Below are positions 1-47,506 of a DNA stretch of 64,000 bases, one piece after another. The stretch's first letter is position 1. Each line of letters starts with the position of its first letter. The position numbers were made by a program, and so were the translations under genes. The stretch is taken from assembly GCA_030704795.1 (NCBI GenBank), contig JAUYCZ010000028.1:19202-83201 (forward strand). The letters run 5' to 3'. Below the pieces are notes generated by a model. The model saw nothing but the letters and a program-made list of their open reading frames with translations, did no database searches and had not been told where the DNA came from. This DNA comes from a bacterium (GTDB lineage: Bacteria; Patescibacteriota; Minisyncoccia; Minisyncoccales; GWA2-46-15).

Positions 1-2
1 CG

Positions 3-350
3 CGCCAATACGCCATGCTTCAAACCTTTCCCTTGACCCGACCCGAAGAGTTCGGCTACACCCCGTCTCTGCTTTACACCAAGGCAGAGCGCAACGCCAA
101 GAGCCTGGCCAACCTAAAGGTTATTTCCGGGCAATGCCAACTCGGTGACATGTTCCTCGTCATCAGCGATGCCCTCGCTGCCTGGCTCATGAACATCGTC
201 GCTTCGGGTGATCCGAAGAAGGCTCAGAGATTTCTGGAAATGCTGGCGGGCTTGAACCAGAAGCGGTTTCACCGCCTAATCAAGTCCTTGCTGGCAGCCG
301 GGCTTCTCAAGAACGACGACGTGACCCTGGCTCGAATCTTCGTAGTGTGA
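3..350 (+). CDS. PP2C-like phosphatase family protein, C-terminal fragment (5' end outside window)
   Basis: The frame is open from base 3. The tail GDMFLVISDALAAW...NDDVTLARIFVV resembles the C-terminal Asp-containing strands of PP2C_2-type phosphatases. GC-rich, with its own terminator. Confidence 0.45.
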   Translation, partial: RQYAMLQTFPLTRPEEFGYTPSLLYTKAERNAKSLANLKVISGQCQLGDMFLVISDALAAWLMNIVASGDPKKAQRFLEMLAGLNQKRFHRLIKSLLAAGLLKNDDVTLARIFVV

Positions 351-354
351 AGGC

Positions 355-392
355 AAAACCCCCGGTCCAATGGATTGGGGGTTCGTCTTTTT
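355..392 (+). terminator. Rho-independent terminator
   Basis: Stem AACCCCC (357-363) / GGGGGTT (377-383), then a T-run. Confidence 0.7.
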
Positions 393-410
393 ATCCGCCG
401 CTCCTTAGTA

Positions 411-439
411 TTGACGAAATTAAACATTTATGCTATAAT
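411..439 (+). promoter_or_regulatory. Near-consensus sigma70-type promoter (cassette copy 1)
   Basis: TTGACG (411-416), 17-nt spacer, TGCTATAAT (TATAAT 434-439). Confidence 0.7.
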
Positions 440-456
440 AGTCGTATCGAAGAGTG

Positions 457-498
457 AGAAAAGGATAGGGTTTTGTCCGTATCTTTTTCTGGCTCTTT
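457..498 (+). promoter_or_regulatory. Conserved 5' leader hairpin plus GGCTCTTT box (copy 1)
   Basis: AGAAAAGGATAGGG pairs with TCCGTATCTTTTTCT. A homologous hairpin with compensatory changes lies at 1864-1902. Confidence 0.5.
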
Positions 499-544
499 GG
501 CAAAATAATAATCTGTATCGACACATTCCGATAAGGAGGATGAT

Positions 545-1750
545 ATGTCTGGTTGGCCTTCGGCCGTCGAGTACGTTTCCGCGGTCCAGAACCCCCCGAT
601 CTGCTTCGACGACTCAGACCTGAAAGGTGGGCAGCCCAAGCTCACTTCCCTCGGTCTGCCGGTGTGTGCCTCGGGCAATTTCGCCACCGTCTTCCGCATG
701 GAGAACGGTGCCGCGACTTTTGCTGCGCGGTGCTTCACCCGGCCCGTCGTCGCAGACCAACAACAACGATACGCCGAGATCAGCAAGTATTTCTCGGGCG
801 TGTCCCTCGGCGCCTTGGTGGCGTTCGAGTACCTCATCAAGGGGATCCAGATCGCTGGACAATGGTATCCCCTCCTCAAGATGCAATGGGTAAAAGGCAA
901 GCGTCTCGACACCGAAGTCGAAAGTCGAGTCGGCAATCCCAAAGGACTTGAAGACTTGGCAACGGAGTGGCGCAGCTTGATGAAAGATCTGCGCGCCAAT
1001 CACATCAGCCACTGCGACCTGTCGCATGGCAACGTGATGTACAACGGCGGTTATCTGTTGATAGATTATGATGGAAGTTGGGTGTCTGCTTTAGCCGGAA
1101 CAAACTCTGGCGAGAATGGTCATCCTAACTTTCAACATCCGGAAAGGGTCAGCGCGGGCTATTACGAGGAGAACACCGATTCCTTTGCCGCGTTGGTAAT
1201 CTATCTGTCGCTGTTGGCACTGAGGTCCGACTCGTCCCTGTGGCCGACGTACAGCAACGGCGACAATCTGATCTTTACCGCCGCCGACTTCAAGGCCCCA
1301 GGAACGACGCCGATCTGGGCGCGTCTGAAAGTGAGCCCGGATGCCGAGGTTGTTCGGTTAACCGAAGAGCTGCAAAAGTTCTGCGGTTGGCCGGTAAGTT
1401 CCGTCCCGGATCTCGAGACGATCCTGACTCAACAACCTTATCCGCAGCCGGCAACGCCGTACACTCCGAGTACGCCTCGTCCCCGGGCCGCTCCGCCTCC
1501 TCGCCCCAGAACTCCTACAATGCCGATACCCGTGGCTCCAGCACCACGGCCGGTCACCACGCCATTGCCGCCGCCACTCCGGCCGGCGATGGCTCAACTC
1601 GCGACCTGTCCCAATTGCGGTACAGCCAGTCGGGCGGGCAGCAAGTTCTGCGCCAAATGCGGTTACTCCGTTGTGACAACAACGTGTCCGCATTGCGCTC
1701 AGACGACCGCTGTCCGCACCTTCTGTGCCCATTGTGGTCAGAGGTTGTGA
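545..1750 (+). CDS. Atypical protein-kinase-like protein with Pro-rich linker and C-terminal double zinc ribbon
   Basis: AAGGAGG RBS at 533-539. Gly-loop-like ASGNFATVF, catalytic loop HCDLSHGN and DFG-equivalent IDYDG. C-terminal CPNCG..CAKCG and CPHC..CAHCG pairs. Confidence 0.7.
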   Translation: MSGWPSAVEYVSAVQNPPICFDDSDLKGGQPKLTSLGLPVCASGNFATVFRMENGAATFAARCFTRPVVADQQQRYAEISKYFSGVSLGALVAFEYLIKGIQIAGQWYPLLKMQWVKGKRLDTEVESRVGNPKGLEDLATEWRSLMKDLRANHISHCDLSHGNVMYNGGYLLIDYDGSWVSALAGTNSGENGHPNFQHPERVSAGYYEENTDSFAALVIYLSLLALRSDSSLWPTYSNGDNLIFTAADFKAPGTTPIWARLKVSPDAEVVRLTEELQKFCGWPVSSVPDLETILTQQPYPQPATPYTPSTPRPRAAPPPRPRTPTMPIPVAPAPRPVTTPLPPPLRPAMAQLATCPNCGTASRAGSKFCAKCGYSVVTTTCPHCAQTTAVRTFCAHCGQRL

Positions 1751-1753
1751 GAG

Positions 1754-1797
1754 AAAACCCCCGATTCGTCGCCAGATGGACCGGGGGTTTGATTTTT
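1754..1797 (+). terminator. Rho-independent terminator
   Basis: Stem AAACCCCCG (1755-1763) / CGGGGGTTT (1782-1790), then GATTTTT. Confidence 0.7.
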
Positions 1798-1815
1798 AGA
1801 GTGGGCCATTTGATA

Positions 1816-1844
1816 TTGACAAAATAAAAAATGTATGCTATAAT
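1816..1844 (+). promoter_or_regulatory. Consensus sigma70-type promoter (cassette copy 2)
   Basis: TTGACA (1816-1821), 17-nt spacer, TGCTATAAT (TATAAT 1839-1844). Closely matches the promoter at 411-439. Confidence 0.7.
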
Positions 1845-1863
1845 TTTGGCATTAGGAAGAGTA

Positions 1864-1902
1864 AGAAAAGGAGAGAATGTTTCTCTATTTTTCTGGCTCT
1901 TT
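1864..1902 (+). promoter_or_regulatory. Conserved 5' leader hairpin plus GGCTCTTT box (copy 2)
   Basis: AGAAAAGGAGAGAA pairs with TTTCTCTATTTTTCT, followed by GGCTCTTT. Confidence 0.5.
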
Positions 1903-1960
1903 CTCAACTCAATACTCAATCGGAATCGAAACCAGAATATTCAAGAAAGGATGGTGGACC

Positions 1961-2764
1961 ATGAACTGCCCGAACTGCAACGCCCCAGTTTTACCCACAG
2001 ACCAATTCTGCACGGCCTGTGCCCAAACCCTTCAGCCGCAACCTCCCCCGCAACCCCAACCCCAAGCACAGCCACAACCTCAGGCGCAACCCCAACCGCA
2101 ACAACGCCGTTTCGTCTTCGGCAATCTGACTCTCGTTGCCATCTTCGGCGGCCTGATCGGATTGTGCATTCTGATCTCGGTCGTTCTGTTCCTTCTCGTG
2201 GGACAGAGCGGAACGAGTACGGCATCTCCGGCGCCGGTTGGGCCCTCGCCTACGCCCCGGATCGTTGTTCTGCCTCCGGCTGGCGCTACCCTGGCTCCAA
2301 CGGCAGTCGCGCCCCTGGCGCCTTCGCCAGCAATCTCGGGCGATCACCCGATCATCATGACTGGCGGGGCGAGCAACCCGGTCGGACAGATGCGGTACAC
2401 GACCGCTCTGCCCAACAGCGTCTGTTCGGGAGGCTGCGGGACGTTCGCAGGCACCGTTGTGCTCCGGCAAGTCCGGGTCACGGGCGCCAACGAATTCGTC
2501 GTTGATGTGGAAATCACTATCACCGACGTTAGCGGCGACCCATGGCTCTTCAACAACGGGCAAGGCGACATCGTCTTTGAGGTAGCGGGGACCAAGTTCA
2601 CCCCGACGGGAAACCGGAATCTGCCCACGCAGGTCACGGCCAAAGGAACTTTCAGTGGCTATCTGACCTTCGCGGGTCGAATACCGTTGGGTTCTGGGTC
2701 GTATCCTGTGAAATTGAGCATTCCGTCGCGACTTTCCCAGCCATTAGAAGGATGGCTAAAATAG
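1961..2764 (+). CDS. Zinc-ribbon / PQ-rich linker / single-TM protein with extracytoplasmic beta-rich domain (DUF4352-like)
   Basis: The ATG at 1961 gives MNCPNCNAPV..CTAC. A (PQ)n linker and the TM segment LTLVAIFGGLIGLCILISVVLFLL follow. The 1877 start would read through the leader hairpin, so I reject it. Confidence 0.6.
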   Translation: MNCPNCNAPVLPTDQFCTACAQTLQPQPPPQPQPQAQPQPQAQPQPQQRRFVFGNLTLVAIFGGLIGLCILISVVLFLLVGQSGTSTASPAPVGPSPTPRIVVLPPAGATLAPTAVAPLAPSPAISGDHPIIMTGGASNPVGQMRYTTALPNSVCSGGCGTFAGTVVLRQVRVTGANEFVVDVEITITDVSGDPWLFNNGQGDIVFEVAGTKFTPTGNRNLPTQVTAKGTFSGYLTFAGRIPLGSGSYPVKLSIPSRLSQPLEGWLK

Positions 2765-2778
2765 TCGCAAAAATAAAA

Positions 2779-2815
2779 GGGCGCGTTCGAAGTACGAACG
2801 CGCTCTTATATTTTC
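2779..2815. terminator. Bidirectional hairpin terminator at the island boundary
   Basis: GGGCGCGTTCG / CGAACGCGCTC stem with T-rich tracts on both strands, between convergent genes. Confidence 0.7.
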
Positions 2816-3216
2816 TATTGAACCGGTAGGTTCGGCGGTGGCTTAGGTTCGGACAATTCCGGCTCTTTCAATTCTTCGGCGATCTCGGCCATTCTTTGGC
2901 GAAAAGGATTCGGGGTTTCAGGAACCGGCGGAGGCGCTGGCGGCATTATTGGTCTGAATGGAGGGGGCATTAAAGGCCTGGGCACGGGTGGCATGGGTGG
3001 CGGCGGGACGATAACTGGCTGAGGTAAAACTGGAGACGCTTGAGCCGGTTCTGGCGCGACCGACGCTGGCGCGGGCGGAGCAATGGGTTTTTGCGGCTCG
3101 GGCGGTGTCGTCACGGGCAGCGACGGCTTGATAAGGGGTTTCTTGTCTTTTCGTGAGCGTTGATAGAAAAAAATGCCGAGCGAAACTCCCAAAAGAATTA
3201 AGAAAAAAAGTGTCAT
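2815..3216 (-). CDS. Proline-rich membrane-anchored hypothetical protein
   Basis: N-terminal TM segment MTLFFLILLGVSLGIFFY, then long PPxP tracts. Confidence 0.5.
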   Translation of the reverse strand: MTLFFLILLGVSLGIFFYQRSRKDKKPLIKPSLPVTTPPEPQKPIAPPAPASVAPEPAQASPVLPQPVIVPPPPMPPVPRPLMPPPFRPIMPPAPPPVPETPNPFRQRMAEIAEELKEPELSEPKPPPNLPVQ

Positions 3217-3226
3217 GGTTAAGTTT

Positions 3227-4678
3227 TTAGCTATTGTTCATTTTCCCTTTTAGATTCGGGCTTGTCAATAAAAGCGGCAGCTGGTAGATGTCGCCGGCAC
3301 CCATCACTACGAGGACTTCTTCACTCCGGAGATTTTTTTTGAGGTATGGCGCTGTTTCTTTGAGCGTGGGGATATACAATGTCTTTATATCTTGTATCTT
3401 GTATTTTGTATTTTGTATTTTTGAGATGGCTAAGGCCAGTTTTTTGGAGCTGACTTTCTTTTTGATGGTTGGACTTTCGCGGCCGGCAACGCTATAGATA
3501 TCAATCAGAATTAATTTGTCGATTGGCGCTTGACTCAAGACTCTGACAAAGTCTTTGAAGAGGTGGTAAGTTCTCTGATATTGATGGGGCTGGAAAACGC
3601 AGCTAATCTTTTTTCGGGGATATTTTTCCCGAACGGCTTTGAGCGTCACCTCAATTTCGGTCGGATGATGAGCGTAATCACTAACAATTATTATCTTCCG
3701 CGTTGTTCCGCGTAGTTCAGCGGTCGTGATTTCGAATCGGCGCCAGGCGCCGCGATATTCTCCCAAAGCCCTAAAGCTGATTTTGTCAGGAATTTTTAAG
3801 ATTCTGGCCGTGGCCAGCGCCGCCAAAGCATCTGCCAAAATGTGTTCCCCGGGAATTTTGAGAATCTTTTTTAGTTTTTTGGAGTCGCGCGATTTTGATA
3901 ATTGAAAATTTATAATTGAAAATTGATTGGAAATTGCCCCTCGGTCCTGAGCTCGGGGTCGAAGGAGTAATTGAAAATTGGAAATTAACTTCCGGGTATT
4001 TTCATCGTTTTTATTGATAACTAAATACCCTTTTTTCGGCAAATGTCTAATAAATTTCTTGAAGACTTTGATGATGTTGCTAAGGTTTTTAAAGTAGTCC
4101 AGGTGATCTCTGTCGATCGTGGTCAAAACAATTATCTGGGGCCAATAATTCAAAAAAGAACTTTTGTATTCATCCGCCTCAATGACCAGGTACTGGGATT
4201 TTCCCGGCCGATAGTTGCTGTCACCGAATTCTTTGAGCTTGGTGCCGACAATGACGGTTGGATCCAGCCCCGCCTTAATCAAAATCAAAGAAATTATGGC
4301 GGTAGTCGTGCCCTTGCCGTGGGTGCCGCAGACGGCAATGGTGAAATAGTTCTTAGTCAGCTTACCCAAGGCCTGAGGATAACTTTGGCATTTAATCTTT
4401 AATTGTTTTGCCCTTTTTAATTCCGCGTTCTGGTTTTGAATGGCCGGGCTGTAAATCACCAAATCTGGCCTCTTTGCCCTATCTTTTGCTTTGAGGTTTG
4501 GGTTGACCACTCTTTTGTCATTGGGCCCGAAGAAAATCTTGGCACCGGCCTTTTCCAGTCCCCGGCTGATTTCCGAAGGCTCCAAATCCGAGCCCGTCAC
4601 CTGATGATTTTGAGACAAATAATGTCGGGCGAGAGCCGAAACGCCAATACCGTTGATACCGATAAAATGGAGGCGCAT
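3227..4678 (-). CDS. murC: UDP-N-acetylmuramate--L-alanine ligase
   Basis: N-terminal HFIGINGIGVSALA and the Mur-ligase P-loop GTHGKGTTT. Length 483 aa. Confidence 0.9.
   Translation of the reverse strand: MRLHFIGINGIGVSALARHYLSQNHQVTGSDLEPSEISRGLEKAGAKIFFGPNDKRVVNPNLKAKDRAKRPDLVIYSPAIQNQNAELKRAKQLKIKCQSYPQALGKLTKNYFTIAVCGTHGKGTTTAIISLILIKAGLDPTVIVGTKLKEFGDSNYRPGKSQYLVIEADEYKSSFLNYWPQIIVLTTIDRDHLDYFKNLSNIIKVFKKFIRHLPKKGYLVINKNDENTRKLISNFQLLLRPRAQDRGAISNQFSIINFQLSKSRDSKKLKKILKIPGEHILADALAALATARILKIPDKISFRALGEYRGAWRRFEITTAELRGTTRKIIIVSDYAHHPTEIEVTLKAVREKYPRKKISCVFQPHQYQRTYHLFKDFVRVLSQAPIDKLILIDIYSVAGRESPTIKKKVSSKKLALAISKIQNTKYKIQDIKTLYIPTLKETAPYLKKNLRSEEVLVVMGAGDIYQLPLLLTSPNLKGKMNNS
3936..3968. 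repeat. GC-rich mini-insert (repeat family 1) inside murC, in frame
   Basis: Core CCCCTCGGTCCTGAGCTCGGGGTCGAAGG encodes LRPRAQDRGA. It is flanked by the direct duplication AATTGAAAATTG..TTGGAAATT (3914-3935 and 3969-3986). Confidence 0.6.
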
Positions 4679-4681
4679 AAA

Positions 4682-5251
4682 TTAAGTTGAAAGCGGGATG
4701 CTTTCTAAAACATGGTATTCTGGACCCTCTTTTTTTAATTCGCTTTCCATGACTTCGATTGACTCAACCAAGAAAGTAAAAGAGATTTCTTTGTCAATCT
4801 CGGGAATTTCCTCCGGTTCTAATTGATGCCATTGCCACTGTTTGATTCGGGCTAAGGTGATATGGGGACTAAAGCCATGAGTTTCTTGGTCGGGATCTTC
4901 TTTTACATTCTCAAAAAGGGAGCTTTCTAGGTCCTGTTGCAATCGAGTTAGTTCTTTTGAGGCCCGGCCTTCGACCCAGATCAGGCGGGGCGGTTTTTTC
5001 TTGGGGGGGCCAAAAACAATTCTCTTTAAACTCAAAGAGAAAGGGGTGTGTCGGCGGCCGACTCCTTTGACGAGGTCGCAGACATCGAGCAGTTCATCGT
5101 CGTTGACATAACCCAAGAATAAAAGCGTCAGGTGCAGATTTTCCTTTTTGGTCCAGCGGAGGGGTAAGTCGGGATAGTTGTCCCGAAAAGAATAAAGCTC
5201 TTTCCTGATCTTTTCGGGCACATTGATGGCGATAAAGATTCGTCGAGGCAT
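4682..5251 (-). CDS. thpR: RNA 2',3'-cyclic phosphodiesterase / 2'-5' RNA ligase family
   Basis: Two HxTx motifs (HLTLLF and HITLAR). Length 189 aa. Confidence 0.8.
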   Translation of the reverse strand: MPRRIFIAINVPEKIRKELYSFRDNYPDLPLRWTKKENLHLTLLFLGYVNDDELLDVCDLVKGVGRRHTPFSLSLKRIVFGPPKKKPPRLIWVEGRASKELTRLQQDLESSLFENVKEDPDQETHGFSPHITLARIKQWQWHQLEPEEIPEIDKEISFTFLVESIEVMESELKKEGPEYHVLESIPLST

Positions 5252-5288
5252 TTCAAAATCATACCATAAAGTGATATATTACGGGTAT

Positions 5289-5744
5289 ATGAAAAAAACT
5301 AAGAAAGAGAAGGCAAAAAAGAATCTCCAGGAGGAAACAGAAATTCAGCAGGTGGTTAACCACTATTTCTATACCAAGGGTTTGGTTTTGGACGAGATCA
5401 AAAAAAATGCCAGGAAAAGAAAGATTATCTATTCCCGCTTTACCCGGCCGGCCAAGCAACTTTTGGTCTTAGCCGGTTCCGTCGAGAAGGCTAAAAGCGC
5501 CATCACCCGAGTGGCCGAATGGGCCAAGTCCCGGAACTTAGACTATGCCATTGAAACCGTCTTTAAAAAATGGCTGGAATTGGACCGGTTAAAGCCAAAA
5601 GAAATCGTCAAAAAACCCTATTTTCAGGGCGATCCTCTCGTCTGGTCCGGCGCCAAAAGAAAATGGTACGTCATTTCCAAGGATGGCGATTGGCTGGAGT
5701 TTGCCGGCCGGGAAGAAGAAGTCGAATGGCGCATCATAAAATAA
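5289..5744 (+). CDS. Hypothetical protein
   Basis: Start taken at the ATG at 5289 (MKKTKKEK). No motif recognised. Confidence 0.45.
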   Translation: MKKTKKEKAKKNLQEETEIQQVVNHYFYTKGLVLDEIKKNARKRKIIYSRFTRPAKQLLVLAGSVEKAKSAITRVAEWAKSRNLDYAIETVFKKWLELDRLKPKEIVKKPYFQGDPLVWSGAKRKWYVISKDGDWLEFAGREEEVEWRIIK

Positions 5745-5745
5745 T

Positions 5746-6681
5746 ATGAAAATCATTTTCTTTGGCACGCCCGAGTTTGCCGCGACAATCCTAGAAGAGC
5801 TGATCAAGAGCAATCTCAAGCCCATTTTGGTTGTCACCTCTCCTGATAAACCTGTGGGCCGAAAACAAGTGATCACTTCCCCGCCCGTCAAGGTTTTGGC
5901 GGAAAAATATTCCATCCCGGCGCTGCAGCCAGAGATTTTAGAGATACCGGACTTTCGCCTGATTTTTTCCAATTCTCAACCAGACCTGGTGGTTTTGGCC
6001 GCTTATGGTCCGCCCTTTTTAACCAAGGAGTTTTTGGCCATTCCTAAATACGGCTGCTTAAACGTTCACCCCTCGCTCTTGCCCAAATACCGTGGCGCTT
6101 CCCCCATTCCTCACACTATTCTCAACGGCGAAAAGGAAACCGGCGTCACCATCATCCGGATGTCAGAAAAAGTTGACCGGGGAGATATTCTGGCCCAGGA
6201 GAAAACCGAAGTTTCTTCAGATGAGACGACCCCGACTTTAACGGCTAAATTGGCCAGCTTGGGCGCTAAGCTTTTGGTTAAAACCATTCCGCTTTTGCTC
6301 CAAGGCAGAATCGCTCCTCTCGCCCAGACCGATTCCCCCACTCCATACTGTTATCAGTTAAAAAAAGAACAGGGGCGGATTAACTGGCAAAAGTCTGCCG
6401 ACGATTTAGAGAGACAAATACGGGCCTTTGACCCTTGGCCGGGCACTTACGCTCTTTTTGCGGGCAAGATCTTGAAAATTTTGCGGGCTTGTGTTATTAC
6501 AGAGATGAAACCTCAAAGCCCACCAGGTTTCGTTTTTTTGACCCCGGACAGGAGAGTGGCCGTTCAAACCGGCCAAGGCTCTCTGGTGATAGAAATGGTT
6601 CAGCTCGAAGGCAAAAAGGCTCTGCCTGCGCCAGAGTTCTTGAGAGGCCACAAAGAAATTATCGGTCAAATATTAAAATAA
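5746..6681 (+). CDS. fmt: Methionyl-tRNA formyltransferase
   Basis: MKIIFFGTPEFA N-terminus, HPSLLPKYRG motif and the C-terminal Fmt domain. Confidence 0.9.
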   Translation: MKIIFFGTPEFAATILEELIKSNLKPILVVTSPDKPVGRKQVITSPPVKVLAEKYSIPALQPEILEIPDFRLIFSNSQPDLVVLAAYGPPFLTKEFLAIPKYGCLNVHPSLLPKYRGASPIPHTILNGEKETGVTIIRMSEKVDRGDILAQEKTEVSSDETTPTLTAKLASLGAKLLVKTIPLLLQGRIAPLAQTDSPTPYCYQLKKEQGRINWQKSADDLERQIRAFDPWPGTYALFAGKILKILRACVITEMKPQSPPGFVFLTPDRRVAVQTGQGSLVIEMVQLEGKKALPAPEFLRGHKEIIGQILK

Positions 6682-10340: not shown

Positions 10341-10985
10341 TTATTTCTTCTTTTTGTCCGAGTAATTCTTCCCGAGCAGATGTTCTTTCGTCTTTGCCTT
10401 GCCGTCTTTCGTCACAAATTCATCCCACCACCACTCGTTTGGGTTACTCTTTTTCATGGCAAAAGCCAGTTGTTTAGCTGATTTTGTGTGAAAATATGGA
10501 ACACGCGCGATGAAATCTCCCTCAAACCATTTCTCTGCGAGCTTGTTTCCCCTCCAGGTCAGAACCCACTCGTGATACATCTGTGCCAAGGAATCAGCGT
10601 CTTTCGCGCATTGAGAGACTAATGTTTTCCTCTCATTGTATTCTTTAAGCAGTTTTTTCAGGTCGGCTCCGAAATCTATATTTTTAAACTGGTCTTTGAT
10701 CGCCCGCTCCTCGTCGTCTTGGGTGTAATTCTTGGAAACAAAATCCAGGTCCCCTGTCCGCCCTTCGGCTAGGTCGTGGAAAGCGGCCATGCTCAACGCC
10801 TTCATCGCTTCTGCGTGATTGAGTTCTTCCATTCGCGCCAGGCAATAAGCAATGATTGAGGCATGGTTGCTATGGGAAGCAACGGTATCAAACGCATTGC
10901 CTAAACTGCGCACATGTGATCGGGGTGTTTGCAACAACGATCCCGCTTGCTGTATTAAAAAGAGGATTTTTTTATTGAATTGCAT
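10341..10985 (-). CDS. HD-domain phosphohydrolase (YfbR-like)
   Basis: H...HD signature (HSNHAS ... FHDLAEGRTGD). I prefer the ATG at 10985 because it avoids overlap with the upstream gene. Confidence 0.7.
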   Translation of the reverse strand: MQFNKKILFLIQQAGSLLQTPRSHVRSLGNAFDTVASHSNHASIIAYCLARMEELNHAEAMKALSMAAFHDLAEGRTGDLDFVSKNYTQDDEERAIKDQFKNIDFGADLKKLLKEYNERKTLVSQCAKDADSLAQMYHEWVLTWRGNKLAEKWFEGDFIARVPYFHTKSAKQLAFAMKKSNPNEWWWDEFVTKDGKAKTKEHLLGKNYSDKKKK

Positions 10986-43109: not shown

Positions 43110-45335
43110 ATGAAATTAAGTTTGAATAAGAAAAAATGGCTGAGTCTGGTCTTGGCCGCCCTCTTTCTGACATTCCTGGCCAGTTTTTATCTGCAGCATC
43201 AGCTCGTCTCGCTTTATCGCCAGCAAGCCTCCTCTTTGGTCGAAGACCGGGAAGGTCGTGTTATTGCCATCCGGCCCAATCGCCAGGGATATTTTAACCG
43301 TCCAGTTGTTAATCTGCCCGCTAGGATGGCCGATCTTTTAGTTAAAAAGGAAGACCGATTTTTTTACTACCATAACGGCGTCAACCCGATTAGTATTATC
43401 AAAGCCTCTTTTGGCTATTTAGGGTTGGGCCAGAGAAAGGCCTCAAGCACCATTAGCCAACAGTTGGCCAAAATTCTTTTAGGCAACGAGCTGCGGCGAA
43501 CCGGGCAGAATAAACTCAAGGAAACCCTCTACGCTTTGAGTCTGGAGATTTTCCAGCCCAAGCGAGAAATCTTGAAAATGTATGCCAACTCCATTTATTT
43601 TGGCTATCAGGCCCAAGGGATCTTTGAGGCCAGCCGTCTTTACTTTGGGACCGATCCCGAAATGCTCACCGAGGGGCAGGTCTTACAACTTTTAGCCACG
43701 ATTTCTGAACCGGCCGAAAACAATCCCGCCAGCGAGAATAATGAGAAAATCAGTTTAGCCATGGCTAAAAAATTCATTTTTTCTGAAGAAGGCTTGAGTT
43801 TCAGTCAAGCTGGCCAAGTCAGAGAGCAGATGAAAAAGGTTTCGCATGCGGACGATCTTTTCTTCGAATTAAAATCGTTTTTGACGGAGCCGAAAACAAT
43901 TTGCCAAACGACCTTAGACCGAGATCTGACCAGAAAAATCAGAGAAATAGTCCAACGGAACATCGAAAGCTTAAAGATAGAGAATGCCCGGAACGCGGCC
44001 GTGGTAGTTTTAAAGCTGCCCGAAAATGAGATTTTGAGTCTCATCGGTTCGCCCGATCCCAATTCCTTTGAGTCGGGTTATCAGATTAATATGCTGATGG
44101 AATTGCGACCCATTGGCTCTACCATTAAGCCTTTTATCTATCTCAAGGCCTTTGAAAAAGGGTTGAGGCCCTATACCCTGGTTGAGGATAGAGAGTACAA
44201 ATATATTACCGCCTTAGGTTTCCCTCTTTATCCTAAGAATTTTGACTATCAATACCGCGGCCGGGTCAAACTTAACTACGCCCTCTCCAATAGCCTGAAC
44301 GTGCCGGCGGTCAAAGTCCTGGAATACGTCGGTTTGGAGGATTTCTATCAATTCTGGGGAAAGGAAATGGGCTTTAAACCGAAGCAGCCCTGGAACAGCT
44401 ACCAGCTAGGTATTGCCTTGGGGGGTTTGGAAATGAGCCTCTGGGACCTGGCCAGATACTTTACCATCTTTCCCAACCAGGGCTGGCTGAAAGACGTTAA
44501 GGTTTTTCAGTCGGGAGACTGTTTTCAGCCAAAGCCAGAAACAACCAAAGAGATTGCCCAACCCGGTTTCATCCAGCTGGTCAACAAGATTCTCAATGAC
44601 CGCCAGACCGGCGTGGAACAGTTCGGCATGAAGAGCGAGCTCAATCTCTTTCAGGAAAACTATGCCCTAAAGACCGGCACTTCGCGCGATTTCAGGGACA
44701 GTTGGATTATTGGTTATACCCCCGACTTCCTGGTCGGTGTCTGGGTAGGCAATGCCGACAACTCTCCCACCGACAAGATTTCTGGCCAACAAGGCGCGGG
44801 CCTGATCTTTTCCAATATTATGGAGCTGCTCTTGAATTCCCGATACAACTCATCGAGCCTGAAGGCTCCTCAGAGCCTGAACGGCAAAAAAACTCCTTTT
44901 GACTTCAGTCTCGTCAAAGATTTCCCATCCCTCGAGGGTACTCGGGACTTTCAGTCCCTCGACTCGGCTCGGGACTTTCAGTCTGATCAGGGCCTTGATT
45001 GGGGTCTCCAGGGTGACGATTATAAGAAAACCCAAAATCTTTTATTGGCGCAAGATACTGCTTTGATATTATTGCCGCACGACGGAGATTCTTTTCTGCT
45101 CGAGCCCAATACTAAAATCATCCTGCGCGCCCGCCAGGCCGTCGACTGGTTTGTTAACAACGAGTTTATCGGTCACGGCCAGGAGCAGATTTTCATTCCC
45201 CCGACTCCCGGCAACTATCAAGTCAAAGCCCAATCCCCCACTAGTCAGGCTGAAAGTCCCGAGTATCCACGAGGGGCTGGAAGCCCCGAGCGCTCCCGAG
45301 GGGAGGAAGTTTCCATTTCTGTCCTGGGCGAGTAG
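43110..45335 (+). CDS. pbpC: Bifunctional class A penicillin-binding protein, PBP1C-type
   Basis: GT51 motifs EDRFFYYHNG and STISQQLAK. Transpeptidase motifs STIKPF, SNS and KTGTS. C-terminal BiPBP_C-like segment W.VNNEFIG...PGNYQVKA. AAGGAGG RBS. Confidence 0.85.
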   Translation: MKLSLNKKKWLSLVLAALFLTFLASFYLQHQLVSLYRQQASSLVEDREGRVIAIRPNRQGYFNRPVVNLPARMADLLVKKEDRFFYYHNGVNPISIIKASFGYLGLGQRKASSTISQQLAKILLGNELRRTGQNKLKETLYALSLEIFQPKREILKMYANSIYFGYQAQGIFEASRLYFGTDPEMLTEGQVLQLLATISEPAENNPASENNEKISLAMAKKFIFSEEGLSFSQAGQVREQMKKVSHADDLFFELKSFLTEPKTICQTTLDRDLTRKIREIVQRNIESLKIENARNAAVVVLKLPENEILSLIGSPDPNSFESGYQINMLMELRPIGSTIKPFIYLKAFEKGLRPYTLVEDREYKYITALGFPLYPKNFDYQYRGRVKLNYALSNSLNVPAVKVLEYVGLEDFYQFWGKEMGFKPKQPWNSYQLGIALGGLEMSLWDLARYFTIFPNQGWLKDVKVFQSGDCFQPKPETTKEIAQPGFIQLVNKILNDRQTGVEQFGMKSELNLFQENYALKTGTSRDFRDSWIIGYTPDFLVGVWVGNADNSPTDKISGQQGAGLIFSNIMELLLNSRYNSSSLKAPQSLNGKKTPFDFSLVKDFPSLEGTRDFQSLDSARDFQSDQGLDWGLQGDDYKKTQNLLLAQDTALILLPHDGDSFLLEPNTKIILRARQAVDWFVNNEFIGHGQEQIFIPPTPGNYQVKAQSPTSQAESPEYPRGAGSPERSRGEEVSISVLGE
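44929..44982 (+). repeat. Family-1 repeat, 2 x 27 bp tandem, in frame in pbpC
   Basis: CCCTCGAGGGTACTCGGGACTTTCAGT followed by CCCTCGACTCGGCTCGGGACTTTCAGT. These encode SLEGTRDFQ and SLDSARDFQ. Confidence 0.85.
45250..45303 (-). repeat. Family-1 repeat, 2 x 27 bp, inverted orientation, in frame in pbpC
   Basis: CTGAAAGTCCCGAGTATCCACGAGGGG matches the reverse complement of 44929-44955 at 24 of 26 positions. The second unit is more diverged. Confidence 0.85.
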
Positions 45336-45338
45336 TTT

Positions 45339-45359
45339 GTGCGAAGCTTAGCTTCGCAC
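45339..45359 (+). terminator. Hairpin after pbpC (part of the left island end)
   Basis: GTGCGAAGC-TTA-GCTTCGCAC. No T-run, followed by TTGACA (45365-70). Confidence 0.45.
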
Positions 45360-45532
45360 GATCCTTGACATTTCAATGACTTTATGAAAAACTATCGTAT
45401 CTCTCCTTGTTGGCTTTCTGGTAATAAATCTTGTTGCTAGAAAGCCGGCAAGGATGACTGGCCCGTTGGTTCCGCAAGGCGGAATACGGTCAAAAGCGAT
45501 CTTTCCCAGCCCAAGGGGCAAGGAGTAGAAAA

Positions 45533-46096
45533 ATGGGAAAAAGTAGCTTGAAAGGGAATGAACTGACTTCCCTAGTGGAACGAGCGTCAGCGCTCCAAAA
45601 AGCCAGTAGAGGGTACCGAGACGGCGCTGCTGAAAGCGCCCGGTTGGCCCTCGACGAGTTAGTCCTTCAGATTCTGCGAGACCACCTCGAACAGGTAGTC
45701 TTGCGTCTGGATCCCAGGAAGTCACAGGCTTGGGATGACTTCTACGCAGTTCTAGAAGTCGAGGCGAACTCGGTGGTTCTGCGGATGCCAGTTCCTAAAC
45801 TCAAGTCGAAAGACTCAGAGCTGGCAAACAGGATTCGGACGAAGATCGTCCGGGAGGAAGAAATGGAAGCAACAATCATTGCGGTGATACTCGTCGTAGG
45901 AGGGATTGGGTTCATCGTAAAGATGCTTCGTCAAAGAGACGACGGAAATGGGTACGACTACATCGGTTACCTTGGCGCTGATGGCAAACCTTGCGACGCA
46001 ATTGGGTTAGCACGGTTTTGTCCCACCAAGAAAGAAGCCGAGGCCGTTGCTCGAGCGTTCGGCTACAAAGTAGAACGCGAGGAGATGAAACGATGA
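45533..46096 (+). CDS. GC-rich hypothetical protein with one central TM segment (187 aa)
   Basis: AAGGAG RBS 7 nt upstream. TM segment ATIIAVILVVGGIGFIV. No motif recognised. Confidence 0.55.
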   Translation: MGKSSLKGNELTSLVERASALQKASRGYRDGAAESARLALDELVLQILRDHLEQVVLRLDPRKSQAWDDFYAVLEVEANSVVLRMPVPKLKSKDSELANRIRTKIVREEEMEATIIAVILVVGGIGFIVKMLRQRDDGNGYDYIGYLGADGKPCDAIGLARFCPTKKEAEAVARAFGYKVEREEMKR

Positions 46097-46350
46097 AGAT
46101 CATCTTAAACGGTTTGAACGTCACTCTCGCTGAAGTTTTGACTAGACTTCAGGAAGAGGGCGCGCCTCGCTTCGCGGTAGCCCTATCGCGAAGTGATTAC
46201 GCCAAGAATCCCAACGAAAGAAAGCCAGGTAACGCCGTGATCGTTATGACCGCTGCTGAATTCCAGAAGTTAGAAGAAGAGCAACGACATACGGTCGAAA
46301 TGGTATTGGCAGCTCAACAGTTGGGTGCCCAAGTTGTTTTCCGTAGCTAG
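46093..46350 (+). CDS. GC-rich hypothetical protein (85 aa)
   Basis: ATGA start/stop overlap with the upstream ORF, and GAGGAG upstream. A terminator follows. Confidence 0.55.
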   Translation: MKIILNGLNVTLAEVLTRLQEEGAPRFAVALSRSDYAKNPNERKPGNAVIVMTAAEFQKLEEEQRHTVEMVLAAQQLGAQVVFRS

Positions 46351-46362
46351 TAGAGCTTAAAG

Positions 46363-46405
46363 GAGACTCAACGCCTTAGAAAAAGGAGTTGAGTCTTTTT
46401 ATTTT
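46363..46405 (+). terminator. Rho-independent terminator
   Basis: GACTCAAC (46365-72) / GTTGAGTC (46388-95), then TTTTTATTTT. Confidence 0.65.
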
Positions 46406-46430
46406 GGCGAGTCGCCAAGGACTGCGGCAT

Positions 46431-46544
46431 AAGCTGATTAAACAGCTATTGTTTTACGACAAAATAGCTCCCGGCCAATATCAAATCAAAGCCCAATCCC
46501 CCACCGCCCAGTCGGAAGAAATCACGATTTTTCTCAACCAGTAA
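46431..46544 (+). pseudogene. Orphan remnant of an alternative/ancestral pbpC 3' end
   Basis: Translates to KLIKQLLFYDKIAPGQYQIKAQSPTAQSEEITIFLNQ*. Shares the identical 19-nt TCAAAGCCCAATCCCCCAC with 45223-45241. No start codon or upstream ORF. Confidence 0.75.
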
Positions 46545-46552
46545 ATAAATCA

Positions 46553-46574
46553 GCACCCGAGATTTCTCGAGTGC
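46553..46574. terminator. Hairpin terminator (presumed original pbpC terminator, also serves the minus-strand small-ORF operon)
   Basis: GCACCCGAG-ATTT-CTCGAGTGC. A T-rich tract follows on the minus strand. Confidence 0.55.
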
Positions 46575-46598
46575 CGATTCGATTTGGCGTCGGTTGCG

Positions 46599-46739
46599 TT
46601 ATTCTTCGATGAAAAAGAGCGACGTGAAACCGGCGGCGAGCAACCCTTCGGTGGGGACGACATGAAAGATGCCGTTGATGATGAGCCCCAGCGCGAGCGC
46701 TCCGTACACGATCTTGCGCAACTGTCGATTGGTCAACAT
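46599..46739 (-). CDS. Small hydrophobic protein (46 aa), not in the ORF track
   Basis: GGAGGTG RBS 7 nt before the ATG. Sequence MLTNRQLRKIVYGALALGLIINGIFHVVPTEGLLAAGFTSLFFIEE. A terminator follows. Confidence 0.5.
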   Translation of the reverse strand: MLTNRQLRKIVYGALALGLIINGIFHVVPTEGLLAAGFTSLFFIEE

Positions 46740-46781
46740 GGCCAATCACCTCCTTTGAAACTCAGATTGTCGTTCGTTCGG

Positions 46782-46946
46782 CTAGCGAGTCGGCGGCGCG
46801 CCCGGTCGACAATGGGCGCAACGAAAAAGGTGCTTGTGTCGGCGTCCGGGCTTTGCCAGACAAGTAAACCCATGTTTACACATCACGCTACACTTTCCAT
46901 TGTCTCGGGACCGCCGCGGCCGATTCTTCCGCAGAAAATCGAACAT
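46782..46946 (-). CDS. Small basic Cys-rich (zinc-ribbon-like) protein (54 aa), not in the ORF track
   Basis: AAGGAGG 5 nt before the ATG. Sequence MFDFLRKNRPRRSRDNGKCSVMCKHGFTCLAKPGRRHKHLFRCAHCRPGAPPTR. Consensus promoter upstream. Confidence 0.45.
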   Translation of the reverse strand: MFDFLRKNRPRRSRDNGKCSVMCKHGFTCLAKPGRRHKHLFRCAHCRPGAPPTR

Positions 46947-46981
46947 CCATACCTCCTTGGTCTGGGATACGTACTGGATAA

Positions 46982-47009
46982 ATTATAGCACTAATAATAT
47001 AAATGTCAA
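46982..47009 (-). promoter_or_regulatory. Consensus sigma70-type promoter
   Basis: Minus strand TTGACA (47009-04), 16 nt, TGCTATAAT (TATAAT 46987-82). Confidence 0.65.
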
Positions 47010-47047
47010 GAGTTTGTGCGAAGCGAAATTTCGCCTAGCACAAATCA
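47001..47047. repeat. Right island end, an imperfect inverted copy of 45334-45373
   Basis: Shares AAATGTCAAG, GTGCGAAGC and GCACAAA blocks with the reverse complement of the left end. AGTTTGTGCGAAGC (47011-24) is also a direct repeat of 45334-47. Confidence 0.6.
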
Positions 47048-47049
47048 AT

Positions 47050-47081
47050 CAAAAAGCACACATCATGGATCGATGTGTGCT
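47050..47081 (-). terminator. Rho-independent terminator
   Basis: AGCACACATC/GATGTGTGCT stem, followed on the minus strand by TTTTTGATT. Confidence 0.7.
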
Positions 47082-47096
47082 CTGTTTGAAGGGCGA

Positions 47097-47381
47097 TCAC
47101 TTCACTGGGAGGAACGTGATTACCACGAGGAGGGTGCCACCGATCAAGCAGGCGCCCGCCAGGAAGTACCAGACGAGTGACGTCTGATGGTAAGCGGTAG
47201 CATAATTTGGCGCCGCTTTTGGCGTCCCTCGTCCACTTGCCTCTGATGCGCCACGCTGATACTCATCTGGTCCATAGCGGTGGATGTCCGTTTCCGCTTT
47301 TCGGCTTTCTTTGCGCCCTTCGCGCCAAAAGAAAACGCCTACCAGAAAAAGGATCGCCCCGATAATTTGCAATGTTAGCAT
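47097..47381 (-). CDS. GC-rich two-TM small protein (94 aa)
   Basis: ATG at 47381 preceded by AAGGAG. TM segments LQIIGAILFLVGVFFW and LVWYFLAGACLIGGTLLVVITFL. Confidence 0.55.
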   Translation of the reverse strand: MLTLQIIGAILFLVGVFFWREGRKESRKAETDIHRYGPDEYQRGASEASGRGTPKAAPNYATAYHQTSLVWYFLAGACLIGGTLLVVITFLPVK

Positions 47382-47420
47382 TGCACACTCCTTTCCTTTC
47401 TGCGGTTTATCCGCATAAAA

Positions 47421-47449
47421 ATTATACAATACTTAATTAAATTAGTCAA
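47421..47449 (-). promoter_or_regulatory. Near-consensus sigma70-type promoter
   Basis: Minus strand TTGACT (47449-44), 17 nt, TGTATAAT (TATAAT 47426-21), then leader hairpin TGCGG-ATAAA-CCGCA. Confidence 0.65.
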
Positions 47450-47506
47450 TACATCATCAAAAATCTCCGATTAGTATCGGGAATATTAGGCTCAGAGAAT
47501 AATTGA

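Follow-up and report, generated by a model that had tools for sequence, protein, structure and literature searches.

A TerY-P-type four-gene island with a zinc-ribbon membrane partner beside murC in a Wildermuthbacteria-like CPR bacterium

The genomes of CPR bacteria are tiny, and few defence systems have been recognised in them. The PknB-PstP and PrkC-PrpC systems are Hanks-type kinase/PP2C pairs that lie beside cell-wall genes, and an anti-phage system named TerY-P, represented in PADLOC by the models TerY, PP2C and STK_OB, was reportedly presented by Gao et al. in 2020. The TerY-P triad was described by Anantharaman, Iyer and Aravind in 2012; by the published definition, which Bell et al. 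(eLife 2024, PMC11090510) summarise, its kinase is an STK fused to a zinc ribbon (ZnR). According to the same summary, the triads were first described in Ter-associated contexts, and a metal-sensing phosphorylation switch was proposed for them (Anantharaman et al. 2012, cited in PMC11090510); TerY-P is a known defence-associated system (PMC11090510).

The window is the whole 64-kb stretch of DNA that was analysed, and its positions 1-2815 cover the right-hand three quarters of an accessory island of four genes in a Wildermuthbacteria-like CPR bacterium. The order of the genes is a TerY-like vWA gene, a PP2C-type phosphatase, a Ser/Thr kinase that ends in a double zinc ribbon, and a zinc-ribbon membrane protein (ZnTM). 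An independent Logan assembly (contig L001) is identical to window positions 1-3963 at 100% and adds 1618 nt leftward, and this left extension supplies the TerY gene missing from the window. A sequence-only reading had described a three-gene unit running past the left edge; the continuation was confirmed, and the unit has four genes, the unseen one being the TerY vWA gene. The island and its right flank contain the following features.

L001 186-1022, just left of the window: TerY-like vWA gene; PADLOC TerY E = 3.9e-85, profile positions 3-276 of 277
1-350, plus strand: PP2C-like phosphatase, C-terminal 115 codons; PADLOC PP2C E = 2.6e-13 for this window fragment
545-1750, plus strand: TerY-P-type Ser/Thr kinase, 401 aa; PADLOC STK_OB E = 3.5e-65
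1961-2764, plus strand: ZnTM, 267 aa; N-terminal zinc ribbon, TM helix and putative C-terminal beta-sandwich
2777-2807, no strand assigned: bidirectional terminator-like hairpin, detected on both strands, between ZnTM and the convergent Pro-rich TM and murC genes
2815-4678, minus strand: backbone flank outside the island, with a Pro-rich single-TM protein (2815-3216) and murC (3227-4678)

By family models and gene order, the first three island genes are assigned to the TerY-P triad. The vWA protein carries a MIDAS motif (DxSxS, read in the sequence as VDGSGSTS), and is accompanied by a PP2C-like phosphatase and a kinase with a C-terminal zinc ribbon; the three genes are adjacent and co-directional in L001 and keep the same order in contigs L002, L003, L110 and L111. 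These domains, their direction and their order are shared with the triad as it is summarised in PMC11090510. The complete PP2C gene (241 aa, L001 1243-1968) matches the PADLOC PP2C model at E = 1.9e-36, scores 8.2e-5 and 22.7 bits against Pfam PP2C_2, which is under the gathering cut-off of 24, and ends in a visible NDDVTLARI motif. Unlike the triad in a tight operon, the island genes are separate units of terminator, promoter and leader, with gaps of 194-220 nt, in each of which a terminator-like hairpin and a promoter are found. The homologues from other phyla form tight operons, with gaps of 4-40 nt in L003, L110 and L111; a tight operon is typical of the family and lies outside the published TerY-P definition. 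The island further differs in having a conserved fourth gene, ZnTM, after the triad, in its CPR host, and in its surroundings, where McrBC/CoCoNuT, WXG100/FtsK and nuclease genes were not seen.

The kinase domain (residues 1 to about 300) is followed by a Pro-rich linker and, at the C-terminus, by a double zinc ribbon (354-398). Positions 3-303 of the STK_OB profile align to this domain and the OB-fold half (about 304-562) is unmatched, the linker and the double zinc ribbon taking the place of the OB fold; the OB part is likewise lacking in the ZnR form of PMC11090510. In Pfam, the tail matches DZR (1.1e-7, 32.4 bits against a cut-off of 27.3) and Zn_ribbon_3 (1e-9), and the protein reaches 2e-5 and 24.6 bits against Pkinase (PF00069), whose gathering cut-off is 31.7. 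Across 26 members of the kinase family, H156xD158LxxGN163, D174-Y-D176 and R62 are invariant, and R62 is taken by us to occupy the position of the usual beta3 lysine (VAIK). From these profile and motif comparisons the fold is judged kinase-like and the clade atypical. The three protein identities first proposed were upheld by the PADLOC PP2C and STK_OB matches and by the zinc ribbon and TM helix of ZnTM, and the suspected phospho-signalling or conflict module of foreign appearance turned out to be a TerY-P triad; however, the zinc-ribbon kinase, which had been called atypical, is the standard form of the TerY-P family (PMC11090510). The island shares its three protein families with the reported anti-phage system, its kinase domain matching STK_OB 3-303, whereas the defence reportedly shown by Gao et al. 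(2020) concerns an OB-fold kinase and the island kinase has zinc ribbons.

The island is set apart from the backbone by its composition. Per-kb GC over window positions 1-3000 is 0.54, 0.55 and 0.59, against 0.37-0.525 over the remaining 61 kb; the coding sequences of PP2C, kinase and ZnTM have GC contents of 0.57, 0.59 and 0.61, respectively, and the intergenic spacers are AT-rich (0.39-0.41). GC3 lies at 0.66-0.74 in the island genes, whereas the backbone averages 0.537 (sd 0.046, maximum 0.614, 26 ORFs), an excess of 2.8-4.5 sd for the island, so that the contrast between GC-rich coding parts and AT-rich spacers seen at the outset was borne out. The GC step is sharp at about 2800, close to the left edge of the window. 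Since the Pro-rich TM gene has a backbone-like GC3 of 0.53 (murC, 0.51), the compositional end of the island is placed at about 2764-2815, in agreement with the sequence-only reading, and the hairpin at 2777-2807 forms its right boundary, an equivalent element being found at the same junction in L002 (6808-6837) and in L038. An abrupt GC change right at the edge of the window is also what would be expected if GC-rich DNA of another organism had been fused to a CPR contig. This was excluded as an assembly chimera or contamination, and we consider it next to impossible, because the 2770-2820 junction is crossed by the independent Logan assembly at 100% identity, the same junction and gene order recur in four contigs of related organisms from different samples (L002, L038, L105 and L106), and host-type promoters lie within the AT-rich spacers of the island. 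The junction, flagged earlier for checking, is therefore genuine. A scan with murC places the host in Patescibacteria, the nearest genome being Ca. Wildermuthbacteria GWA2_46_15 (Fmt 87% and ThpR 94% identical).

Three related lineages carry the island at one and the same site beside murC, and MurC is 65-68% identical between them. In L002 and in L038/L105/L106 the four-gene layout adjoins the Pro-rich TM gene and murC, and both flanking genes are kept beside the island in L002, L038 and L105. The island is absent at the murC of L006 (MurC 62%) and at those of about 75 other CPR murC loci, and the murC-adjacent site is still accessory on this account. Between the window and L002, TerY, PP2C, STK, ZnTM and MurC are 51, 56, 57, 34 and 68% identical, respectively, and the PADLOC TerY-P models also match the L002 orthologues. 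Between the window and L105, similarity of the triads is undetectable and the ZnTM proteins are 70% identical; the two kinases are related at profile level only (hhalign probability 87%, 21% identity). In the L038/L105 lineage, an unrelated vWA-PP2C-kinase triad, which PADLOC does not recognise as TerY-P, is located directly upstream of the same ZnTM. The parts of ZnTM follow different partners: the ZnR head is common to the window and L002, and the TM helix and C-terminal domain are common to the window and L105. Swapped parts make the locus a mosaic, in which the zinc-ribbon head of ZnTM changes along with the triad type, an association based on only two triad types, and the TM and external part is exchanged independently. 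In L002, a HEPN/MNT element is a defence-like neighbour.

The island GC3 is deviant in all three lineages, including L002 and L105, and the nearest non-CPR relatives lie in GC-rich Chloroflexi-type genomes. The homologous loci outside CPR have 61-67.5% GC and gene gaps of 4-40 nt; no homologue was found in phage records. The proposal of horizontal acquisition stands in part: the accessory distribution, the deviant GC3 in three lineages and the Chloroflexi-type relatives agree with it, but the murC synteny in L002 and L038/L105/L106 implies that this is not a recent strain-specific insertion but an old variable site common to the clade. The sequence-only reading had counted conserved murC synteny in related genomes and uniform GC as evidence against itself; the former was found and the latter was not. 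An origin from a GC-rich donor, with its nearest homologues of Chloroflexi type, and entry next to murC in an ancestor of this CPR clade probably account for this pattern.

The stable position beside murC in three lineages could reflect a domesticated housekeeping role. A Ser/Thr module of the envelope or cell division, comparable to PknB/PstP, would be inherited vertically with murC and use ZnTM as an extracytoplasmic sensor, with no conflict system involved. It would explain why the same place by the Pro-rich TM gene and murC is occupied although MurC has diverged to 65-68%, why a membrane protein with an external domain is present, and why the divergence of the triad between the window and L002 only slightly exceeds that of MurC. 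The likeness to PknB-PstP and PrkC-PrpC extends to a Ser/Thr kinase and a PP2C beside a peptidoglycan gene. In contrast to those pairs, however, the island kinase is putatively soluble (no TM helix was noted on reading its sequence), belongs to a different clade, is sub-threshold for Pkinase and has Arg at the presumed beta3 Lys; the external domain belongs to another protein, the accessory locus has a foreign composition, and the Pfam search of the island proteins found neither PASTA nor FHA domains. We regard the housekeeping role as improbable, because the island has no PASTA or FHA domains by Pfam, is missing from so many CPR murC loci, is convergent with the backbone and divided from it by a bidirectional terminator, exceeds it in GC3, and encodes three proteins that are matched by defence-system models. 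In addition, the triad has been exchanged at its site for an unrelated one, as is typical for conflict loci and not for core signalling.

ZnTM contains, in order, a zinc ribbon (CPNC...CTAC), a Pro/Gln repeat linker, a TM helix (56-80), a Pro/Ala linker and a beta-sandwich domain (124-267). Its start is placed at 1961 because homologues begin with MNCPNC or MTxCPNC, and it scores 3.6e-5 and 23.9 bits against Pfam Zn_Ribbon_1, just under the cut-off of 25. In the AF2 model, residues 56-80 form the TM helix and the C-terminal part a beta domain (C-domain pLDDT 72-94); the zinc ribbon is predicted to be cytoplasmic and the beta-sandwich, beyond the single TM helix, to be external and Ig-like. The ZnTM domain family has only 11 representatives among 1.84 billion. 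ZnTM-family genes without any triad exist (L107-L109), so the link to the triad is not obligatory; ZnTM is a lineage-specific membrane partner that is new relative to the known TerY-P triad.

Based on the results presented above, we consider it likely that the locus is a TerY-P four-gene accessory island of GC-rich donor origin, encoding a phospho-switch coupled to ZnTM and expressed from per-gene units. The kinase and phosphatase would control how far a target is phosphorylated; this target is probably the metal-binding vWA protein or one of its partners, and the switch may be turned on and off in response to phage infection or to envelope or metal stress. ZnTM, acting as sensor or output, would tie it to the membrane. 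This link is argued mainly from two unrelated vWA-PP2C-kinase triads that, at one locus, are both directly upstream of ZnTM; a further argument is that the zinc-ribbon head changes with the type of triad, the TM and external part being swapped independently. The original Ter context suggests another function, a metal or tellurite stress module in which the vWA MIDAS senses metal and the kinase and phosphatase relay the signal, rather than an anti-phage system. The Ter-associated first description and the proposed metal-sensing phosphorylation switch, as summarised in PMC11090510, are in its favour, as is the MIDAS motif of TerY. But the screen of other CPR murC loci, made with the four island proteins TerY, PP2C, kinase and ZnTM and not with terD, terC, terZ or terB, found no homologue, and family models were applied to a minority of the window's small ORFs; the island-flanking genes with a family match in L001, L002 and L105 are unrelated to ter functions, and in-situ swapping and the HEPN/MNT neighbour in L002 fit conflict better. 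A metal-stress role in place of an anti-phage one appears even less probable than the housekeeping one. For the switch coupled to ZnTM, retention of this protein through a complete exchange of the triad provides a concrete candidate handle on the TerY-P mechanism and its phosphorylation target, and the variable site that the clade shares beside murC indicates that CPR bacteria keep and exchange defence systems. The triad is known; the ZnTM partner, the mosaic locus and a cassette repeated before three genes are new.

This cassette consists of a terminator, a promoter and a 45-nt purine/pyrimidine leader hairpin. Homology between spacer 345-547 and spacer 1745-1963 extends over about 200 nt, and a third homologous copy is located just left of the window. 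The mutual homology of the two spacers had escaped the sequence-only reading. Their elements in the window are as follows.

357-393, plus strand: intrinsic-terminator-like hairpin (357-383) and T-run after PP2C, cassette copy 2; 12 pairs, 7 of them GC, then CGTCTTTTTA
411-439, plus strand: promoter-like site of the kinase gene, TTGACG-17-TGCTATAAT, 11/12, extended -10 TG
446-502, plus strand: leader hairpin copy of the kinase gene, GAAGAGTGAGAAAAGG...CTTTTTCTGGCTCTTT, beginning about 10 nt past the -10 element
533-539, plus strand: Shine-Dalgarno AAGGAGG of the kinase gene, from sequence reading, 5 nt upstream of the ATG at 545
1755-1798, plus strand: imperfect terminator-like hairpin (1755-1790) and T-run after the kinase, cassette copy 3; inverted repeat I5
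1816-1844, plus strand: promoter-like site of the ZnTM gene, TTGACA-17-TGCTATAAT, 12/12 with TG
1853-1906, plus strand: leader hairpin copy of the ZnTM gene, GAAGAGTAAGAAAAGGAGAGAA...TTCTCTATTTTTCTGGCTCTTT; covariance model R1, 65.1 bits

The hairpin at 357-393 aligns with its counterparts in the two other cassettes, one of them being inverted repeat I5, whose 16-nt arms are 81% complementary. The promoter-like sites read TTGACG-17-TATAAT for the kinase and TTGACA-17-TATAAT for ZnTM, and only 5 sites of at least 11/12 occur in the whole 64 kb, 2 of them within the 2.8 kb of the island. AT-rich terminators, near-consensus sigma-70 promoters, the conserved leader hairpin and a strong SD make up each unit, and the earlier description of a hairpin terminator, a TTGACr-17 promoter and an AAGGAGG-type RBS for each gene was confirmed (357-383, 411-439, 533-539 and 1816-1844). 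Remodelling of a GC-rich operon of foreign origin into successive AT-rich units, each with its own promoter and terminator, illustrates how foreign genes can be adapted to a host unlike their source.

Computed folding energies of the leader hairpins run from -26 to -38 kcal/mol; the copy at 446-502 reaches -37.8 kcal/mol (z = -5.2) and 62.1 bits with R1. The purine and pyrimidine arms are both conserved in sequence and the apical stem covaries, those of 1853-1906 and 446-502 differing by compensatory changes. Across 10 copies, 93.9% of cells are paired and 5 pairs are changed on both sides, and the score of the real copies was attained by 0 of 500 shuffles. R1 found no further copies in the window, and Rfam gave no match at the gathering threshold in the window and none at E <= 1 in L001 (leader hairpin and TerY leader). 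With its shared sequence and covarying stem, the hairpin is a candidate new regulatory RNA element. It may act as a 5'-terminal RNA stabiliser or processing element that evens out expression of the four genes. The stabiliser reading fails as stated in L002, because no recognisable promoter stands ahead of the hairpins preceding PP2C and the kinase there; processing of a read-through transcript would be needed instead.

The ompA and ermC leaders are 5'-terminal mRNA stabiliser hairpins, and phage T7 has intercistronic RNase III hairpins. Like these, the element is a stem-loop, long and stable, which precedes successive genes and lies either at the predicted 5' end of each transcript (window) or between two cistrons (L002); unlike them, the putative leader element has two sequence-conserved arms, a covarying apical stem and no Rfam match. 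A wider reading, in which the locus is a four-component membrane-coupled vWA-PP2C-kinase switch with ZnTM as constant sensor or output and an exchangeable triad, and the hairpin a new class of cis-acting RNA that accompanies GC-rich, foreign-looking genes in low-GC genomes, is offered tentatively, as we lean against it. Three copies of the hairpin belong to this island, one of them left of the window, and two to L002; it is also found before GC-rich genes for Pro/Thr-rich membrane proteins, downstream of sortase genes, on unrelated metagenome contigs.

The kinase protein of the GC-rich island (window 1-2815) is also encoded on L001, an independently assembled 5.6-kb contig that matches window 1-3963 with 100% identity and extends it by 1618 nt leftward. 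This extension contains the remainder of the PP2C gene, preceded by the gene for a 278-aa vWA protein. Of the PADLOC models for the TerY-P defence system, TerY matches the vWA protein (E = 3.9e-85) and PP2C the phosphatase (E = 1.9e-36 for the full protein and 2.6e-13 for the window fragment); the match of the kinase to the STK_OB model (E = 3.5e-65) covers the kinase half of that profile, and the kinase tail carries a double zinc ribbon (Pfam) in place of the OB fold. The TerY-P triad has been defined as a TerY-like vWA protein, a PP2C-like phosphatase and an STK with a C-terminal zinc-ribbon fusion (PMC11090510), and its OB-fold version is a stand-alone anti-phage system by experiment (PMC11090510; see also PMC4978471). 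The first three genes of the island are the TerY-P triad as published, and the fourth encodes a zinc-ribbon/TM/beta-sandwich protein (ZnTM). The three-gene island proposed by the sequence-only reading is therefore real but longer, as the TerY gene on the L001 extension also belongs to it. The triad belongs to a family already known. New features are its CPR host, a membrane partner that is conserved, the swapping of modules at a single site and per-gene cassettes that include a leader hairpin.

The kinase motifs H156xD158LxxGN163 and D174-Y-D176, which the same reading called atypical, are traits of the family, invariant in 26 homologues. Arg62, which is assumed to occupy the place of the usual beta3 lysine, is likewise invariant in these homologues. 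The kinase has no match in phage records, and its only two matches in plasmid records are to cyanobacterial plasmids (31-33% identity); these comparisons do not point to a phage or a plasmid as carrier of the island. The closest kinase homologues outside CPR, with 45% identity, belong to Chloroflexi-type MAGs and lie in loci of 61-67.5% GC. In three TerY-P loci outside CPR (L003, L110 and L111), the gaps between triad genes are 4-40 nt.

The composition of the island is foreign to its surroundings. The first three kilobases of the window (1-3000) have GC values of 0.54, 0.55 and 0.59, compared to 0.37-0.525 in the remaining 61 kb. The GC3 values of the PP2C, kinase and ZnTM genes are 0.665, 0.672 and 0.664, whereas 26 backbone ORFs have a mean of 0.537 (sd 0.046, maximum 0.614). 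The contrast is at the codon level, and the island spacers have a GC of 0.39-0.41. The Pro-rich TM gene at 2815-3216 (minus strand) has a backbone-like GC3 of 0.53, so the compositional island stops before it. Windowed GC and codon usage thus bear out both the contrast and the right edge read from the sequence. Across all three lineages, the GC3 of island genes is 0.66-0.83 and that of the flanks is 0.41-0.55. The possibility that the island junction is an assembly chimera, raised by the same reading, is excluded by five independent contigs. The Pro-rich single-TM protein, encoded directly downstream of murC, has no Pfam family match and is kept in the window, L002, L038 and L105 at 59-70% identity.

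A MurC scan of GTDB species representatives led to Patescibacteria, in which the closest relative is Ca. Wildermuthbacteria GWA2_46_15 (L038); its Fmt and ThpR-like (LigT) proteins, both encoded adjacent to murC (4682-6681), are 87% and 94% identical to those of the window. MurC itself (3227-4678) is 65% identical to the L038 orthologue; murC, which adjoins the variable site, is unusually diverged, with low-complexity inserts. Among the 80 murC loci from the scan, island proteins were found in L038 alone (ZnTM). The next relative, L006 (MurC 62%), has neither the island nor the GC step. The other carriers of the island, L002 and L105/L106, were reached by protein look-ups and not by the MurC scan. 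L002, from a different sample and with a MurC 68% identical to that of the window, has TerY-PP2C-STK-ZnTM convergent with murC and the Pro-rich TM gene, as in the window. At the same site, L038, L105 and L106 have genes in the same order for a vWA protein, a phosphatase (PP2C_2), a kinase (Pkinase) that ends in a zinc ribbon, and ZnTM. The triads of this type lie at:

L038 9392-13226, minus strand
L105 6544-10378
L106, also carrying this triad

These triads have no BLAST-level similarity to that of the window and are not matched by the PADLOC TerY-P models, and the kinases of the L038/L105 type and the window are related only at the profile level (hhalign 87%, 21% identity). On the other hand, the ZnTM proteins are 70% identical, and 82% over the C-domain. 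The triads of the three loci look like an unclassified TerY-P-like clade. L002 shows the reverse pattern: its triad is of the same type as that of the window (51-57% identity), whereas its ZnTM is just 34% identical. In the ZnTM alignment, the zinc-ribbon head is common to the window and L002, and the TM and C-domain are common to the window and L105. The sequence-only reading had counted synteny with murC in relatives against an acquired island; the island adjoins murC in L002, L038, L105 and L106, and the synteny test is thus positive. The murC-adjacent island is a clade-wide mosaic accessory site and not a core gene cluster. An alternative in which the island is a housekeeping envelope-signalling module is weakened by its absence from other CPR murC loci, its convergent and insulated layout, the codon bias of its genes and the exchange of the triad in situ. 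Upstream of the island in L002 (568-2275) lie a HEPN/nucleotidyltransferase toxin-antitoxin pair of the MNT type and the GC-rich gene (GC3 0.67) of a 312-aa protein with no family match, and the left flank of this site may hold further accessory genes.

ZnTM (1961-2764) has a zinc ribbon at its N-terminus, followed by a Pro/Gln repeat linker. In its AF2 model, a disordered linker joins a TM helix (56-80) to a C-terminal beta-sandwich (pLDDT 72-94); a search of the PDB with this model gave no significant solved-structure match, only generic Ig-like sandwiches (best E = 0.02). The zinc ribbon is probably cytoplasmic, judging from the RR preceding the TM helix. A word-index search with full-length ZnTM, flooded by Pro/Gln low-complexity words, gave one match, and the C-domain alone returned only protein P0122. 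An exhaustive HMMER search found 11 representatives of the domain family among 1.84 billion, which implies that the family is truly tiny; members with a complete N-terminus have a common ZnR/TM/domain layout and a CxGGCG motif. The triad of L003 is followed 750 nt downstream by an unrelated beta-propeller-like repeat protein, and that of L111 by a low-complexity ORF that is unlikely to be a genuine gene. As neither is ZnTM, this partner is specific to the present CPR clade. The ZnTM-family gene P0121 (35% identical; L107 4400-5793, also in L108 and L109) occurs with no triad, overlaps the end of a gene for a coiled-coil protein with a terminal zinc ribbon and adjoins an IS (rve) transposase.

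The kinase/phosphatase pair may toggle a target, probably TerY or a partner of TerY, and ZnTM would join this switch to the membrane. The role of such a system could be defence or stress. The alternative of a metal-stress module found no supporting gene among those examined near the island, in an examination not aimed specifically at ter genes.

The spacers of the island are built from repeated signals, and the promoters and terminators recognized in the sequence-only reading hold up:

357-383 and 2777-2807, terminator-like hairpins
411-439, promoter-like site, 11/12, with TG
1755-1790, imperfect hairpin
1816-1844, promoter-like site, 12/12, with TG

Promoter sites of at least 11/12 number five in 64 kb, two of them in the island. 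The three spacers of the island, 194-220 nt long, repeat a single cassette. In order, it comprises a terminator-like hairpin and TATTGAC-17-TGCTATAAT, then a 45-nt hairpin whose 5' arm is rich in purines and whose 3' arm is rich in pyrimidines, and last approximately 40 nt of conserved leader and AAGGAGG. In the L038 type, a terminator and promoter precede each gene where the spacer is readable, and the leader hairpin was not found in these spacers. Integron-like cassettes were rejected by inspection, with no integrase and with repeats unlike attC. Two more of the window's five best promoter matches, both on the minus strand (47009-46982, 12/12; 47449-47421, 11/12), fall in a 2.1-kb stretch (45350-47500) with small ORFs only, flanked by a PBP1C gene (43110-45335) and the gene for a 2157-aa alpha-2-macroglobulin (47507-53980, minus strand).

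The cassette hairpins have fold energies of -26 to -38 kcal/mol and start approximately 10 nt past the -10 element, near the expected transcript start. In L002, the hairpin and leader precede PP2C and the kinase with no recognisable promoter in front, which implies that the hairpin is older than, and independent of, the promoters. In an alignment of ten copies, 93.9% of cells are paired and five pairs are changed on both sides; several columns are fixed by the search pattern, so the weight rests on the free columns only. None of 500 shuffled alignments reached the observed score, and slid registers were 50-69% paired. A role as a DNA operator was rejected because of the variable distance between the conserved arms and the covarying inner stem. 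The hairpin probably acts at the RNA level, as a 5'-terminal stabiliser or processing element. In the window, a covariance model recovered the two island copies and no others (65 and 62 bits, against 15 for the next-ranked match), and it gave no convincing copy in approximately 1 Mb of CPR loci; a match in L030 (27.6 bits), apparently within coding sequence, was discarded as a chance purine/pyrimidine hairpin. The leader hairpin is not an element of CPR in general, and its pattern had zero matches in viral contigs. The TerY gene also has a strongly structured 5' leader of approximately 190-220 nt (L001 50-188, immediately to the left of the window; L002 2575-2720), with fold energies of -64.4 kcal/mol (z = -7.7) and -57.5 kcal/mol (z = -6.2), in which a long hairpin, CUGAGAUCAUGCCGUGAG...CGGGAUGAUCUCAG, is kept in both lineages via compensatory changes. 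Neither this leader nor the leader hairpin has a match in Rfam.

An exact-pattern scan of JGI metagenomes found the hairpin at 19 loci, eight of which form one coherent group:

L093, hairpin at 10813-10858
L086, L092, L094, L095, L101, L103 and L104, further hairpin contigs

In this group, a sortase gene lies immediately upstream of the hairpin, which is followed after 15-60 nt by the SD of the gene for a TM-anchored, Pro/Thr-rich protein. Five of the loci allow a comparison with the sortase gene; in each, the downstream gene is GC-rich (GC3 0.55-0.64) and the sortase gene has a lower GC3 (0.27-0.54), a contrast that matches the one in the island. The eight loci represent one evolutionary occurrence and are thus a lead and not a result. 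The metagenome hairpin has the form AAGAyCGAGAAAAG-stem-TTTTTCTGGTTCTTT, and a repeated TAGGACAT motif lies upstream of it.
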